DNA of 49,516 nucleotides, from assembly GCA_964487475.1 (NCBI GenBank), contig CAZAPM010000008.1, positions 57,187-106,702 on the forward strand, given 5' to 3'. Positions 36,001 to 42,000 of the stretch are shown piece after piece; the stretch's first letter is position 1; every line of letters begins with the position of its first letter. Made by a program: the position numbers. This stretch comes from an uncultured Planctomycetales bacterium. Its GTDB lineage: Bacteria > Omnitrophota > Gorgyraeia > Gygaellales > Profunditerraquicolaceae.

Positions 36001-39000
36001 AACGAACCCTTGCCCAAGACGCTCCTGGGAAAGATCAAGCGCTACGAAGTGAAAAAGATATTCGCCTACGTCCCCGAGGAAAAAGACCCGGTGCGCACAC
36101 AGGAACAGGTGCTTACCCCCGAGGAGACCAAGCTGCTGGAATCCCCCCTCTCCCAGGAAGTGATGCGCTATCTGGCAGAAGTGGCCAAGCGGCCGGTCAA
36201 CCTCCACGACAACCTCGAGCTGGACTTAGGGCTGGATTCCCTGGAGCGGGTGGGGCTTTTCTTCGAGCTGCAGAAGCGCATCGGGCAGGAACTCGACGAG
36301 CGCACCTTCCTCGGAGTATCGACGGTACGCGAGATCATCATGAAATTGCACACCGCCACCGGCGCCAGGATCCCGGAAAAAGAAGCGATCAGTTGGGAGC
36401 AGATCCTCAACTCCCCCCTGGAAAAAGAGACCCGGGATGAGGTCTCCATCTCCCAGAACGCCCTGGAAAAACTCATCAATTACATCGGGGGTATTTTCCT
36501 CAAAGTCCTTTTCGGCGTGTATTTCCGCCTCTCCGTCAAAGGCCGCGAGCACCTCCCGAAAGAGGGGCCTTTCATCCTCTGCCCCAACCACACCAGCTAC
36601 CTGGATGCGTTCCTGATCGGGGCGGCCCTGGACCTGCCCCGGGCGCTGCAGACATTCTTTTTAGGGTATACCGCCTACATCAATGCGCCGGGGATCCGGC
36701 GGATCAAGAACCTCTTCCGCATGATCGCCATCGACCCCATGCAGAAACTCGACGCCAGCCTCAAACTCTGCGGGTTCGTGCTGCGCAACGGCAAGATACT
36801 GCTGATGTTCCCCGAAGGGGACCGTTCCCCTGACGGCGCGGTCAAAAAGTTCAAGAAAGGCACCGGGATCCTGATCAAGGAGATGGACGTGCCGGTGGTG
36901 CCGGTATACATCGATGGCGCGTTTTCAGCCTGGTCCGCGCACGGGAAATTCCCCCGGCCGCACAGGATCCGGGTCACCTTCGGCCCCGTGCTTACCCCCG
37001 AGATGCTGCGCTCAAAAGACAAAGGTGACCTTGACATTTACCAGGATATAGTGGATAATTTAAGAATGAAAGTGCTTTCTCTTGCCCCCGGCAGGAAGGA
37101 TTGACGCGGTGAACCTCACGGTCGAAGGATTGAAAAAACTTATCAGCGAAGATGCGCGCAAAAGCGACAGACTGCAGCTGCCGATCAAGATATCCTACCT
37201 GATCAATCCCCAGGGCGAATGGTCGAAAGCGTATCCCGTCGAGGATATCGGCGGAAACGGCCTTAAATTCTGCTCGACAGTCCCTTTAACCGCCCACACC
37301 GCGATCAAGGTCAAGCTCTTCTTCCCCGAACCTCACCTGGAACCGATCGTAGTCAAAGCCGAAGTCGCCTGGTCGAAGCACGGCGGCAAGTGTCATCATG
37401 TCGGAGTCCAATTCAAAAAAATGCAGTATGAGGAGCGCAAGAAGTTCGTCTCCTACATCTGCGAGCGTATCATCCTTAAAGAAATTGCCTGACGTGACCA
37501 TGGAAGTATCCAAACCTGCCCCTCTCGCATCCCTGGATTCGGTGCTCGAGGCCATCGATTACCGGGTGGCCCGCACTTCCCAGGAACTGGAAGCCGCGTA
37601 CGGGCTGGTATATCAGGAATACCTGAAGCGCCGCTACATCAACGAATCCTCTTCCCGCATCAAGTGCTCCGTATTCAACCTGGTGCCGGAGGCCGCGACC
37701 TTCGTGGCGGTGCTGGACAAGACGGTGCTGGCGACCGCCTCCATCATCCCGGATTCTCCTCTGGGCCTGCCCCTGGATTCCATCTATGCCCAGGAGACCA
37801 CGGAGCTTTTCCGGACCAAGGGCAAGAAGATCTGCGAGATCTCGATGCTGGCCAGCGACACCACCCTTTTCTCCAATGAAGTATCCCTGATGCTCAACTC
37901 CAAGAAGATGTTCCTGGTCTTCTACCTTTTCAAGGCGGTGTTCGATTACGGCACCCGGGTGCTGGGGGTCGACAACATCTGCATCACCATCAATCCGAAG
38001 CATGCGCTGATCTATGACTTTTTGATGTTCCGCGACTTCGGGAGGCTCAAGACCTACGACAGCGTCAACGGCGCTCCGGCCATCGCCAAGTACCTGAACG
38101 TGCGGGAAGTCGAGCGGGAATGCGAATTGAAGGAAAAGGAAGGCCTGCTGAAAATGTTCTTCCAGAGGAAGACCGATCCCGAAAAATTATCCGGGAAGGT
38201 CTCCTTCACCCCGGAACAGATCCGCTACTTCTTTGCGGAGAAGACCGACGTGCTGGCACGCGCCACCCCGGCCCAAAAACAGTACCTTAAAAGCATTTAT
38301 CCCCGCTATGATTTCTAAAAAGATCCTTATTGTCGACGACGAGCCTGATATCGTAACCGCCATGAAGTTCTCCCTGGAGCTGCAGGGGTACAAGATCGTC
38401 ACGGCGTATGACGGAGATGAAGGCATCCAGAAAGCGGAGGAAGAGCTCCCGGACCTGATCATCCTGGACGTGCTCATGCCCAAGATGATGGGTGACGATA
38501 TGGCCTCTGCCCTGCGCAACAACTCCGCGACCGCCAAGATCCCGGTGCTGTTCCTTACCAACGTGCCCAAGCAATTCATCAGCGGGATCGACAAGAACAT
38601 AAGCGAACCCTGGGCGCTGGACACCAAGGGAATGATGTACCTGCACAAGACGTGCGAAGAAGGCGAACTTCTCGCCGCCATCCGCAAGCTCATCGGCACC
38701 CCTCTGTAGAAAACAGAGCACCGGCCACATCCTCTTAGGCCGGGTGCTCTTAGGGACGCCCCTAAAGGGGACGCCCCTGAAGGGGACACCCCTCTGCAGA
38801 AAGCAGAGCACCGGCCACAACCTCTTAGGCCGGGTGCCTTTCTGATTTAATCGTTTATTCGAATTTAAAAACCTTATCTATTAGATCGTCGAACGGATTT
38901 TCCTCTTCAACGAACTTCTTGAACAGCATCTTCCTTCCCTCCTCATCCTCGCTTAAGCTGATATAATCCGAATGAGGTCTCTTGATCAGCGGATCATCCT

Positions 39001-42000
39001 CCCCCATCGCATAATAACGATAGCTGCTCCATTTCCATTTGGAAATATCCTCCACCAGCTCGGCGGCCAGAGGATTGCGTTCAATATAGCGGGCACACGC
39101 GAGCAGATATGACTCATGGGCGATCAGCCGGCTTTTGTACCGGTTCTGGAATATCACGCCTGCGGTTTTGTAGCGGCCGGCAAAGTATCCCGCGTAATTC
39201 TGGGTTAAGTTATGTATGAATTTCGGAAGATGCTGCGCGGACGAGGCTTGCAACAGAAGATGAAAGTGATTCGGCATCAGGCAGTAATGGAATACCTGCA
39301 CATTGAATTTTTCCAGGCACCTGACTGCTAAGTTGTGGAAAAAATCGAAATCCCCGGGCCGGCGAAAGATCGGCCGCTTGTCCAGCCCCCGGTTGAGCAC
39401 GTGATAGTACGCCCTATCGATCAAAACCCTCGCTGTTCTAGGCATATGCCCTCCTTTTGCTAATTAAGACGCAAAAGGAAGCGGGTTCTCACGGATATTT
39501 TTTGGCCAGTGCGCTGCTTTCTGCAGAGGGGTGTCCCCTTTAGGAGCGTCCCCCTTAGGGGCGTCCCTAAAAGTAGTAGTTTAGTTCGGAATAGATGCGG
39601 CTTTTGGTGCGGAATTTACCGAAGATACCATCCTTAACCCCGCTGAACGCATCCAACCCCACCTTCCACTGCCAATCCGGGGCGAACTTATACGTCAGCG
39701 AAGGCCTCCACATGAAATCCTCTTCCATCAGGCTCGAAAGCACCAGCAGCTCCGCATCCAGGTCCCCGTCCATAAAACTCTTCTTGAACCAGACGGAGAA
39801 CGAATTGCGCACGCGGTGCTCATTGGCCAGGCGCGAATCATAATCAAACAGATACCGCTGCATCAGTTGGAAATTCGTCTCCAGGGAGCCGAACAGCGTA
39901 TAATCAAAGCTCAACAAATACTCCAGCACATCCTTATCCACGATCCCGTCGGAATCCGCGGCATCGAAGATGGAAAAATGCGCTTTGTGATTGTACACCA
40001 TCTCCCCCCGCCACACTGCCTCCCCGGCTTCCTTGGAAAAAGTCGCCCCATAGGAGTGCATCCGCTCGTACCGCGGAGTGAACACATACTCACCCGATGG
40101 CTCGATCCGCCTGGCGAGCACCGGAGCCCTGTCCCAGGCATACAGGTACATCACGCTCAAGTCCCAGCCGTTAAGCAGGTACGAGACCCGGCCCCCGATA
40201 TCGGAGTTGCGCAGATTCTCCCCCGGCTCCTTCGGGTCCTGCGCCGAGAACGCGGTATTCTCCGGCACCGGATAAGGGAACGCAAACTCGCTGCCCGTCA
40301 CTCCGTAACGGTTGAACTCCAGATCAGGCAACCACACCACTTCGGCGTGAAAATTCTCCCGCACGTACTCCGCATCCACTCCCCACTGCGGCACGCGGAT
40401 CAGATCGAATGACGGCAGCAGGAACTCGCGCAGGTCCTTAGGGTTGACCATATCCGTATAGAAGGTCCCCACCGCCTCACCCCAGACCACCTGCTGCTTT
40501 CCCACCCGCACGTCGAACTGCCCCCGGGAATAATCCAGATAAGTATCCCGCAGCTCAAGCTCATACTCCTGATCCTTTCTCGCCTGCTCGGAGTAATAGT
40601 GCGTGCCGCGGTACACCCCGTCGTAGAACGCCCGGCCGCTGACCTTATACTTAAGATCGTCGGTGAATGCGCCGGAGTTGGAAAGCTGCAGCTGACTGCG
40701 CAGCTTGCTGAACTGACGGGGGTGATGCGTGCGGTAAGCGGTCTCCTGGCTGACAGTTCCGTGGATGGCTCCGGCATCCGCAGCCAAAAGCGGCTTGAGC
40801 CCGGAACAGCCAATTACCACACTCAAGATCAGGCAATACGGAAATGCGCGCATCATTCCATGAATTTTTTCATGTATTCTTTGGTGAAATATTTTTCGGG
40901 AAGTTCGGTGACAGTGATGGTGTTGTACGTCACTACCGAGGTGCGGCCTTTGACAATAGGATCGGACATCACCAGCTTGGAGGGACGGATCGCCCCGGCC
41001 AGCTCCTTGAACTCTTCATAGGTGCAGTTCTTAAGCAGGCGCCCGGAATACCCGTAGAACTCCGCCTTGCGCGGCCAGAAGTCCGCTTTCTGCGCCCAGA
41101 GGATCGCTTTGCCGTAGGTGACGGATTCGTTTTTTGCGGAAAGCTCCAGCACGTAGCAATCCGTGCCGTCGAGCTTCTCCTCCCGCAGCAGCTTGGCGTC
41201 GTAATCCCCGGAAAAATTCACGCGGGCGATGTCGCCGTTTGATACCTGGCCGGTCAGGCGCTCCTGCATGGATAAGCGCAGCGGCTTCGACACCGTCGGA
41301 AAATATCCCCAGAGGTTATTCTCCCGCATCAAAAGCACCCGGCCGCGTTCCATCTCCGGGGTCAGGGTCTTGACCACGGTCTTATCCCGGCCTTTGACGT
41401 AGACTTCGAAGGTGGAGCTCTGGGTCCTGCCTTTAGGGAGGGATGTTACCACCTGAACGTTGGTGGTGTAGTCAAGCTGCGGGCTGCGGACCTCATCGAC
41501 CTTCAGGATGATCTGCTCGGGGGTAAGTTCCTGCGCAACCGCAAAAGTACTCGCACATACAACCATCGCCACGACCATTAAGAACTTCATAGGGACGCTC
41601 CTGTTGGGGACGCTCTTAAAAGGGACGCCCCTGAGGGGGACACCCCTGTACTCATTTTGATCCATTATTTGAAGAAATCAATAATAATTAACTGCTTATA
41701 ACAAGAATAGAAACGTCTTGTAGTTCAATCTTACCCCATGGGTGTCCCCCTCAGGGGCGTCCCCAGTAGGCACCCGGCCAAATATGTCGTGGCCGGTGCT
41801 CCGCTTTCTGCGGAGCGTCCCTATTTTCTTAGCGCGTCGGCGACTTCGAGACGCGAGGCCTTATACGCCGGATACAGCGACGATAAAAGCGACGTCGCCA
41901 CCGACAGCACAAACGCGAACAAGAGCATCCCCGGCACCACCTTCGGCTCGGAGAGCCAATACATGGTCGCGCCCGGCGGCGGCGGCATCGGTATCCCGAT

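Follow-up and report, generated by a model that had tools for sequence, protein, structure and literature searches.

Transposase gene, terminal repeats, and upstream motif

The window analyzed here, a 49,516-nt stretch of one contig of an uncultured Omnitrophota genome, contains a gene for a 196-residue Y1 (HUH) tyrosine transposase (38855..39445, minus strand), classified as RAYT/TIRYT-like from Pfam, the NF047646 model, and its motifs. Pfam Y1_Tnp matched above cut-off (E 5.5e-13), and the NF047646 RAYT model gave 63.9 bits against a cut-off of 80, in agreement with an earlier note that had placed this match below cut-off. The HUH motif (H-F-H) and the catalytic tyrosine are intact. No C-terminal helix-turn-helix was detected, as Y1_Tnp was the only domain found at E 0.01; because the 56-residue tail carries no assigned domain, we do not claim membership of subclass 2.1. 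The genome contains two Y1 genes in all; this one has a GC content of 0.49 compared with 0.58 for the window.

The transposase gene is flanked by 74-nt inverted repeats that are 91% complementary (38747-38820 and 39500-39573). The left arm (38751..38793, plus strand) consists of three 15-bp units and ends with GGGGACAC, a GGGGWSAS motif that lies at the inner end of each arm. The same terminal repeat contains a second hairpin, hairpin B (38796..38837, plus strand), an element found family-wide. On the right side, we found a partial hairpin B (39500..39524, minus strand) and another arm of three 15-bp units (39527..39569, minus strand), whose outer end is the TAG stop of a DUF1302 gene (39567-40856, minus strand). 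An extra copy of the arm inner end together with hairpin B (family D13) is located at 38697..38747 on the plus strand and overlaps the stop codon of a response-regulator gene (38308-38709). Hairpin B is also read in frame close to the 3′ terminus of another gene, which encodes a DUF3108 protein (14971-15795, plus strand); this copy is at 15742..15786 on the minus strand. Rfam searches of five hairpin-B loci returned two matches, both far under the gathering score, and thus hairpin B corresponds to no listed RNA family. The earlier note had described a 15-bp palindromic repeat flanking the transposase; the flanking position was correct, but the 15-bp unit is not a perfect palindrome, and the reported hairpins form between adjacent units and between arms.

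Approximately 20 nt before the transposase start lies a two-part, putatively promoter-like motif, GT[TG]AGA-N15-CGTCT[AT] (39466..39492, minus strand). The motif was sought by regular expressions, since most of its sites in this GC-rich genome escaped a weight matrix built on AT-rich relatives. It was found upstream of 25 of the 26 RAYT/TIRYT genes in the bacterial family and before 17 of 17 such genes not used in defining it; none of four IS200-type genes carried it, and a reversed control gave 0 of 30. In several genomes, recA, comM, radC, and comEA-comEC are also preceded by the motif at a constant spacing (radC was not among the gene calls of this genome). One motif site adjoins a gene that matches sigma-70 region 2 and may encode a dedicated sigma factor for the motif; the candidate sigma-factor gene is at C10:24690-25292. 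Because the transposase appears to share its likely promoter with genes for DNA uptake and recombination, it is likely to be switched on during DNA uptake. This suggests that its expression is coupled to competence through the shared motif, a point not made before.

Distribution and ends of the repeats

The 15-bp-unit repeat (family A) occupies 33 loci with 142 units in the genome, counted after a loose match at C1:6198 had been discarded as chance. The 54 copies at 31 sites counted earlier belong to the same family, tallied in another way. A 12-mer from the arm inner end occurred 34 times in the genome but once in an order-5 Markov sequence of equal length, and a two-unit 25-bp pattern with at most two mismatches gave 55 matches compared with none for the reversed control. 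Copies are dispersed as singles, dimers, and clusters, and the arm period equals five codons, with on average 4.8 of the six frames open through the arms. We found the repeat in none of the 233 other genomes of the order and in none of 40 relatives, while exact-pattern scans of genome-contig and metagenome-contig collections detected 0 loci; thus, these scans yielded no close genome with an empty site.

Nine copies are arm-interior-arm units, in which, as in a MITE, terminal inverted repeats enclose noncoding interiors of 62-135 nt (89-90 nt in five of the nine). Those with an AT-rich interior were found only between genes, and two of these lie in the window. The non-autonomous copy at 28829..28976 is composed of an arm, a 62-nt AT-rich interior, and an inverted arm, and gives the TAG stops of rpoN (plus strand) and of a convergent PocR/GAF gene (minus strand); RpoN terminates at the same residue as one fetched ortholog. 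The copy at 41590..41823, likewise non-autonomous, has a four-unit arm, a 90-nt AT-rich interior, and an inverted arm with hairpin B; it supplies the TAG stop of an FtsX-type permease gene, extends to within 1 nt of the next called start, and has an interior 81% like one on contig C21. In alignments, the AT-rich interiors were mostly unrelated to one another, with one clearly related pair, and none matched the transposase's own flanks beyond hairpin B. Thus, a simple deletion-derivative model fails to explain the interiors of about 90 nt. A sigma-70 scan of the AT-rich interiors found two sites, with 2.6 expected.

Of 46 nonjunction outer ends in family A, 37 followed TTA (23), TCA (5), ATA (5), or CTA (4). 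The GTAG tetranucleotide was not found at the hairpin foot, as GTA preceded none of these 46 ends; in a second repeat family (family C), GTA was present at 8 of 33 outer ends. At the occupied sites available, we found neither a target duplication nor a strict target sequence at the repeat ends; both outer ends abut TA-like dinucleotides. Only 18 of 55 family A outer ends lie inside genes, compared with 89% expected from TA content.

In-frame copies and replacement of host codons

The repeat is present in frame at 14 sites in 13 open reading frames, including folC (twice), addB, dut, priA, hydE, cobU, and the second EF-G gene. This supports the earlier proposal of a transposase-linked repeat lying in frame in housekeeping genes, as well as the genes it named, while its count of eleven sites in ten genes is revised. 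All 14 sites keep the reading frame, and no frame-breaking copy was found among 16 same-strand junctions, as judged by protein ends only. In hydE, cobU, pncB, plsY, and one PEP-CTERM-type ORF, the repeat encodes a C-terminal tail and is not inside a domain, and the EF-G copy sits in a low-complexity linker ahead of the G domain. A fusion of an upstream gene to EF-G through the repeat was rejected, as relatives share the long N-terminal extension. A related arm lies in frame in an rfbB-like gene of another genome (G014).

Comparison with orthologs covered FolC (29), AddB (3), dUTPase (119 homologs), PriA (5), HydE (7), an Fe-S protein (9), and an outer-membrane protein (4 genomes and 119 homologs), while cobU, pncB, plsY, the DUF3108 gene, the PEP-CTERM-type ORF, and a hypothetical ORF at C2:124253 lay outside it. 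The repeats in these conserved genes were absent from the orthologs. FolC gains exactly 11 and 41 residues relative to all 29 orthologs, where inserts of 11 and about 35-40 residues had been reported previously.

At the eight measured sites, the net gain in length was smaller than the repeat-coded segment. The two folC sites encode 18 and 44 residues for net gains of 11 and 41. Repeat-coded segments of 19 residues add 14 in addB, 5 in dut, 10 in the Fe-S protein, and 1 in the outer-membrane protein (or 11 from an upstream ATG), while about 24 residues add 11 in priA and 13 add 9 in mnmG. The closest orthologs are only 40-79% identical, and therefore the junctions are resolved just to a few codons; the linkers of EF-G, DnaX, and a polysaccharide export protein were too variable for gain or loss to be measured. 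Thus, the repeats mostly overwrite host codons, which is a new point. The earlier view that they add short peptides holds for the length gained but is incomplete, because host codons were lost alongside at most measurable sites.

The outer-membrane protein, a conserved protein of 426 residues with 79% identity to its nearest ortholog, has a repeat-coded signal-peptide core, and its native hydrophobic core is gone. This core is the best candidate for a repeat peptide that does a job. In mnmG, the start codon has been removed by a sister repeat; the ATG is kept 7-12 nt past the arm in all three orthologous loci of the enzyme clade that has family C beside mnmG. A tail-to-tail unit of 55 bp with shared variant bases is present in three genes, and all five tail-to-tail units are intragenic. 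The shared variant suggests that the 55-bp unit is likely to have moved as one piece, which has likewise not been noted before.

Route of spread and comparison with known systems

Taken together, the 15-bp-unit repeats form the terminal inverted repeats of a TIRtron-like element, and we consider it probable that they were spread by the single-strand (HUH/Y1) transposase they flank. The enzyme would be transcribed from the host DNA-uptake (competence) promoter, with an alternative sigma factor reading the motif, and would thus be made when single-stranded DNA is plentiful. It may bind the arm hairpins in single strands, cut near the outer end (mostly after TTA, CTA, ATA, or TCA), and join the ends, as modeled on E. 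coli TnpA-REP (PMC3333891). Joining could produce arm-interior-arm units or the tail-to-tail junction unit, while host DNA might be removed through two cuts or an end-anchored deletion. In this way, repeat cassettes would be swapped for 3-18 host codons, and purifying selection would have sorted the copies, so that only swaps preserving the frame remain, located in loops, linkers, tails, and a signal peptide. The E. coli enzyme serves as the model for the chemistry; neither excision nor cleavage was seen in our data.

Spread without the transposase, through hairpin-driven template switching, slippage, and RecA-type conversion among copies, would make its gene one more repeat site. The two to four tandem units per arm, a varying number typical of slippage, agree with this, as do well-kept arms around diverged interiors. 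In addition, FolC loops of relatives are filled by 7-mer tandem arrays and other palindromes, so that these proteins evidently acquire repeats by several routes. We nevertheless regard this explanation as unlikely, because the arms are oriented toward the gene as terminal inverted repeats, a cassette with common variant bases is present in three unrelated genes lacking homology for conversion, and arm type tracks enzyme clade across genomes. In the enzyme tree, built from relatives' enzymes only, family C at one locus beside mnmG is common to four enzymes of one supported clade, and a third arm type is common to another clade. The nearest enzyme (G017, 49% identity) carries the most similar arm; its genome has only four matches to that arm, and thus an intact enzyme does not guarantee spread. 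It is less likely still that another HUH enzyme, either the paralog on contig C16 or one now lost, moved the repeats while the window enzyme remained passive. The C16 Y1 gene is intact and passes the RAYT cut-off (86 bits), both repeat families have the same outer start and carry GTCCC at the inner end, and some sites are mixed (C9:71510-71670, and hairpin B within a family C unit). However, each Y1 gene has only its own family on its flanks, and none of the 33 family C outer ends lies in a gene compared with 18 of 55 in family A, showing that the two families behave differently.

Selection of the repeats as host signals (DNA-uptake tags, terminators, or nucleoid-protein sites), with the peptides as by-products or useful additions, also seems improbable. 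This reading would account for the motif common to the enzyme and uptake genes, for the many units that span the entire gap from a stop to the next ribosome-binding site, and for the stop codons made by 9 of 37 noncoding outer ends (against an expected 7.9%; p 0.002, although the ends are not independent). Against it stand the number of loci, since uptake tags require far more than 33, the absence of the repeat from the other genomes of the order, and peptides whose frame and orientation vary from gene to gene. We find it very improbable that the intragenic copies are assembly artefacts or marks of dying genes. The genome is a metagenome assembly with contigs broken by repeats, and neither the hypothetical ORF beside an N gap nor cobU at a contig end can be judged. 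However, in a sequencing run from another study than the top-ranked run, contigs cross the left-hand junctions of the two folC inserts, with 4 differences at one and 0 at the other, and point changes distinguish the copies. The folC inserts were covered by run X3 only, as X7, X8, and X9 consist of short pieces, none of which joins the two sides of an insert. The four runs showed no empty allele, although their contigs cannot exclude one, and no RNA runs were listed among those carrying the repeat. FolC deviates at 9 of 128 conserved columns (median 3; 25th of 30), the high end for such losses, and the repeat-coded signal region of the outer-membrane protein is less hydrophobic than in 97 of 98 homologs; the function of these two proteins is possibly impaired. 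In contrast, dUTPase retains 63 of 66 conserved columns, the outer-membrane protein has two departures against a median of three, and a threshold of E 1e-5 yielded no paralog of folC, addB, dut, priA, cobU, pncB, or mnmG. In AlphaFold models, the FolC and dUTPase inserts lie in low-confidence loops of otherwise confident folds. From the intact frames, missing paralogs, and kept columns, we infer that the repeat-bearing genes are working genes, in which the added peptides are most likely tolerated rather than adaptive.

Thus, transposase-driven spread of the TIRtron-like element remains our preferred explanation, and the locus provides a defined candidate enzyme-substrate pair, whose natural products (junction unit, interior-bearing unit, and end-anchored deletion) help to predict cut sites. 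Why single-copy RAYT-type transposases persist, and when they are active, is described as an open question in one study (PMC5581495). The motif shared by nearly all family members with recA and uptake genes makes both maintenance and timing directly testable. A broader and rather doubtful extension is that TIRYT-type transposases of the bacterial family are domesticated members of the competence regulon, on together with recA, comM, radC, and comEA-comEC. Their substrate would be single-stranded DNA entering the cell, and repeat cassettes would take the place of short host segments, a process that would have made a working signal peptide and a Rossmann fold's first strand out of repeat DNA. 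If true, this reading would connect the persistence of RAYTs, so far unexplained, with transformation. In-frame insertion by itself is known and would be ordinary; what is new is the overwriting of codons, the tail-to-tail unit in three genes, and the motif common to transposase and competence genes. Replacement rather than insertion alters how such repeats are read in protein evolution, as they can provide signal peptides, start codons, stops, and loops with little lengthening of the protein.

TIRtrons are described by Di Nocera et al. (2013, PMC3733652) as TIR-flanked RAYT-like transposases with a GGGGWSAS motif, and TIRtron/TIRYT probably equals TnpA-Y1 subclass 2.1 (Quentin et al. 2018, PMC6006769) and RAYT group 1 (Bertels et al. 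2017). The window element, with its RAYT-like Y1 gene, long TIRs, GGGGWSAS motif, and modest TIR family of singles, dimers, and clusters, fits this description better than the classic GTAG REP/RAYT pair, which revises the earlier REP-associated label. It differs in its arms of tandem 15-bp units with a captured second hairpin, in the undetected C-terminal helix-turn-helix, in the upstream motif common with recA, comM, radC, and comEA, and, as far as the TIRtron account extends, in the many copies translated in conserved genes at the expense of host codons. Searches of the literature, outside which many subscription papers lay, returned no paper dealing with these repeats in Omnitrophota, with coding segments replaced by TIR repeats, or with a competence promoter ahead of TIRYT genes, and no biochemistry of this transposase subclass.

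In-frame intragenic REPs have already been published (PMC3733652), which makes the in-frame presence here less surprising. The accounts of intragenic GTAG/CGTC REPs (PMC3733652) and of REP inserts in subclass 2.4 tnpA-REP genes (PMC6006769) describe in-frame inserts of 20-40 residues, frequent hits in genes for DNA repair and replication, two inserts within a single gene, and REP ends serving as TAG stops. Those REPs are presented there as insertions, whereas here host residues, including conserved ones, were lost; family A also lacks the GTAG tag, and an intact candidate enzyme adjoins the repeats, unlike the CGTC-type repeats, for which the same account (PMC3733652) gives no linked transposase. 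Rickettsia palindromic elements (reviewed in PMC10969869) similarly comprise a genome-specific palindromic repeat translated in unrelated housekeeping proteins, although they are about 150 bp long, compared with 25-130 bp for the units here. Enterobacterial RU/ERIC repeats fused to ORFs (Delihas 2007, PMC2759123) also include a repeat-coded peptide in a predicted signal sequence; their hosts are mostly small or doubtful ORFs, while the host here is a conserved outer-membrane protein. Last, the E. coli REPtron/BIME system of TnpA-REP (PMC3333891) and Pseudomonas REPINs share the pairing of an HUH enzyme with nearby hairpin repeats, head-to-head and tail-to-tail forms, and tandem amplification, but differ in the end motif. 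PMC5581495 cites raised expression of E. coli yafM upon competence induction, a single expression result, whereas here a promoter-like motif precedes nearly all family members.

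The transposase gene, its arms and their structural forms

The Y1 transposase gene of the window (38855-39445, minus strand; 196 aa; Pfam Y1_Tnp match) has 74-nt inverted repeats of 15-bp units on both sides; the repeat-flanked transposase claimed in an earlier note is real. Each terminal inverted repeat, or arm, is a run of units of 10 conserved bases and a 5-base spacer, terminates in GGGGACACCCCT, and contains a second, bulged hairpin (hairpin B). In a profile search, the enzyme scored 63.9 bits against the RAYT model, below the cut-off of 80, as the note had also reported. 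Judging from the source names of close homologs, the host is most likely an Omnitrophota. In this 1.87-Mb genome (G000; 94.6% complete; 1701 genes in our prediction, 94% coding), the 15-bp family (family A) comprises 142 units at 33 loci, and hairpin B alone occupies 12 further loci. The inner-end 12-mer of the arm occurs 34 times, as compared to once in a Markov control. The two-unit pattern of family A was found in none of 40 relatives with two mismatches allowed, and its exact form in none of 233 genomes of the order.

We distinguished three structural forms. The first, in which an arm and an inverted arm enclose an AT-rich interior, is represented by nine units; their interiors measure 62-135 nt (89-90 nt in five), have 28-45% GC, and are clearly related in one pair only. 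In three more arm-to-inverted-arm units the interior is 11-24 nt long, and in a further one it is absent. The arm-interior-arm units are all intergenic, two of them within the window, and their outer arm can provide the final codons of a gene (plsY, pncB). Among the interiors at window positions 28872-28933 and 41648-41737 and at seven other loci, a length of ~90 nt and a low GC content are kept, and the sequences are mostly unrelated. The second form is a tail-to-tail junction of two arms (~55 bp), found in five copies, all intragenic (folC, addB, dut, and the genes of an Fe-S protein and an outer-membrane protein). Three of these carry the same variant bases and differ at 1-3 positions, the pattern expected if the unit was copied whole. 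The third form consists of single arms, often with hairpin B alongside. The unit in priA is of the head-to-head kind and has a short interior.

The outer ends are preceded by TTA (23), TCA (5), ATA (5), or CTA (4) in 37 of 46 non-junction cases. Nine of 37 non-coding outer ends complete a TAG stop, as compared to 7.9% expected if all intergenic and stop TA sites were usable (p 0.002; ends not independent), and in rpoN and an EF-G-like gene upstream of ychF, the stop falls at the ortholog end position. REP ends providing TAG are described in PMC3733652.

In-frame copies and replacement of host codons

The earlier note had also placed copies in frame within protein genes, which our analysis bears out with 14 family A sites in 13 ORFs. 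They lie in folC (twice), addB, dut, priA, the Fe-S and outer-membrane protein genes, and a hypothetical ORF; one lies in the linker of the second EF-G, and others form C-terminal tails of hydE, cobU, pncB, plsY, and an ORF that we read from its sequence as PEP-CTERM-type. Hairpin B by itself is read in frame at two sites in dnaX, in a gene for polysaccharide export, in the DUF3108 gene of the window, and over the final codons of a macro-domain gene. All in-frame sites have open frames. Because 18 of 55 family A outer ends lie inside genes as compared to 89% expected, the majority of insertions into coding sequence were likely purged or avoided. A second Y1 gene (L014, G000:C16:9469-10128) has its own repeat, family C, with 33 arm ends, none of which lies inside a gene (Fisher p 7e-5 versus family A; ends not independent). 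An arm leaves 4.8 of six frames open in family A and 3.8 of six in family C, whose period, unlike that of family A, is not five codons.

The second EF-G (L010:333-3449, G000:C13:40232-43348) has ~340 additional N-terminal residues in frame, with a hydrophobic N terminus, a coiled-coil-like stretch, and a Pro/Glu-rich linker. Five relatives also have the long form (1005-1092 aa), one interrupted by an internal stop; an EF-G paralog anchored in the membrane, as its sequence may suggest, would be unusual. Similar operons encoding a DUF1302-like outer-membrane protein and a LolA-like neighbor, both with repeat copies, lie at window 39567-43083 and G000:C3:99581-101697.

Comparison with orthologs, with boundaries uncertain by a few codons, showed that the repeat-coded stretch exceeds the net length gain at the measured sites. 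FolC has 18 repeat-coded residues for a net gain of 11 and 44 for 41, and both inserts, already pointed out in the note, are absent from 29 of 29 orthologs. The corresponding values were 19 and +14 for AddB (3/3 orthologs without insert), 19 and +10 for the Fe-S protein (9/9), about 24 and +11 for PriA (5/5; the linker is variable), and 19 and +5 for dUTPase. The dUTPase segment measures 20 residues in 116 of 119 homologs; the protein here lacks its Lys, Asp, and Gly, which 90-97% of homologs keep, and retains 63 of 66 conserved columns. As for the outer-membrane protein (C3:99581-100870), its entire hydrophobic stretch ahead of the Ala-rich cleavage region is repeat-coded, at a position where orthologs have an ordinary signal peptide. 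The frame read is the most hydrophobic of six; the best 11-residue hydropathy is 1.62 versus a median of 2.84, below 97 of 98 homologs, and the mature part departs from two conserved columns versus a median of three.

The clearest case of replacement is mnmG. The second Y1 gene's locus before mnmG is orthologous in five relatives (G007, G012, G014, G083, and G089), and in G007, G012, and G014, the family C element sits 7-12 nt upstream of the mnmG ATG. Here, the arm runs directly into the GxGxxG strand, with the ATG and about six codons lost, and an in-frame ATG is present within the element's flank. Another family C arm (L257:1140-1180, G000:C1:182040-182076) codes for the final residues and the stop of isocitrate dehydrogenase as well as for the beginning of malate dehydrogenase. 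Some family C units enclose a further, nested repeat: their 50-60-nt interiors have counterparts at other places in the genome with 81-95% likeness (G000:C1:141383-141493, C3:49500-49581, C4:97433, C6:92922, C10:16667, and C10:50730). Contig C16 also holds a 7804-aa ORF reaching the contig end (G000:C16:26951-50365).

No paralog was found at E 1e-5 among the predicted genes for folC, addB, dut, priA, cobU, pncB, or mnmG. FolC departs from 9 of 128 conserved columns (median 3, range 0-18), which may reflect branch length or relaxed selection. In AlphaFold models, the host folds are preserved, as confirmed by a further check, and the inserts have low confidence: mean pLDDT is 91.5 for dUTPase (<50 at 69-73) and 82.6 for FolC (<50 at 224-227 and 400-434, also at 16-27). 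Sequencing run X3 belongs to a different study than the top-ranked run; its contigs extend across the left junction of each folC insert and, by 27 letters only, across the right junction of the second.

Enzyme-arm pairing and repeats in relatives

A tree of enzymes (28 from 25 genomes) shows that arm type tracks enzyme clade. The window's enzyme clusters with those of G017 and G016 (99/96), and the closest arm sequence is that of G017; that arm has only four matches, which counts against a simple reading in which the enzyme spreads its arm. Four enzymes with family C arms, at the mnmG locus, form a clade (97/95). Four others have a common third arm type, with 26 copies in G012 and 8 in G009, where it also fills a gene junction. 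In G014, an rfbB-like gene contains a related arm in frame. A RAYT-type clade (L064, L069, L073, L075, L078, and L082) apparently occupies another shared locus, judged by eye from the flanks, upstream of what looks like one and the same small gene on the opposite strand.

Hairpin B is older than the 15-bp family: 13 of 24 genomes of the bacterial family carry it. It is a ~40-nt element with a conserved loop and up to 16 copies, in G016 (L157, L158, L163, and L164; window 15742-15786); in G000, it is also joined to 15-bp arms and is translated in dnaX and other genes. An Rfam search with hairpin B gave no match above the gathering score.

In relatives' folC genes, 7-mer tandem repeats, a 20-bp palindrome, and a GTAG REP lie in frame in two other FolC loops, at two shared hot spots (L033, L035, L037, L038, L041, L047, L052, and L054). 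Several repeat classes colonize the same loops, so that in-frame repeats are common in this bacterial family.

A shared promoter-like motif, a proposed mechanism and known systems

Upstream of the window's transposase lies the motif GT[TG]AGA-N15-CGTCT[AT] (39466-39492), first detected at 18 of 26 relatives' loci. A family-wide Y1 search was positive in 46 of 60 relatives. Among 30 scored loci, the motif lies upstream of 25 of 26 RAYT or TIRYT (TIR-flanked RAYT-like transposase) genes, including 17 of 17 new loci, and of none of four IS200-type genes; the reversed pattern was found at none of the 30. Three relatives have 13, 10, and 4 exact matches (controls 0, 0, and 1), and 25 of these 27 sites have a downstream ORF: comM, spoVG, and ORF6N (3 each), recA, radC, Y1 transposase, and propeller protein (2 each), ComEA-like and antitoxin-like (1 each), and no Pfam match (6). 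Of 76 loose matches in G000, 10 precede genes, versus 1 of 104 in the control: recA, comM, comEA-comEC, spoVG, a pilin-like gene, the transposase, the gene directly after a sigma-factor gene, and three others. The motif also precedes a likely anti-sigma/CHAT operon adjoining the sigma-factor gene G000:C10:24690-25292 (motif loci L165-L198). The genes recA, comM, radC, and comEA-comEC are standard members of competence regulons. Expression of E. coli yafM is reportedly raised on competence induction, as cited by Bertels et al. (PMC5581495).

From the observed anatomy, frames, length balance, enzyme-arm pairing, and motif distribution, we infer a model of chemistry, timing, and protein function. 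The enzyme would most likely be produced during DNA uptake. By analogy with E. coli TnpA-REP, for which cutting and rejoining in vitro are described in PMC3333891, it would most likely bind arm hairpins in single strands, cut, and rejoin, thereby releasing and placing repeat cassettes. Host DNA would most likely be lost via two target cuts or an end-anchored deletion. Units with AT-rich interiors would survive only between genes, and those that lack an interior and have a five-codon period would persist within loops, linkers, tails, and a signal peptide.

The window's system differs from canonical GTAG REP/RAYT systems in the GTAG test and in its score below the RAYT cut-off, and its enzyme was negative in the HTH test. 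Its element shows the four descriptive features of TIRtrons; the TIR sequences and alignments of PMC3733652 (Figure 9, files 4 and 5) may bear on membership. Our literature search found in print neither coding segments replaced by TIR repeats nor a competence-type promoter on TIRYT genes. Repeats in frame within genes have been described before, as GTAG and CGTC REPs (PMC3733652) and RPEs (PMC10969869). The observation that headed the earlier note is real, and its in-frame repeats are ordinary given this literature; replacement of host codons and the common promoter-like motif are, within the literature searched, the additions, and they raise the case to moderate interest.
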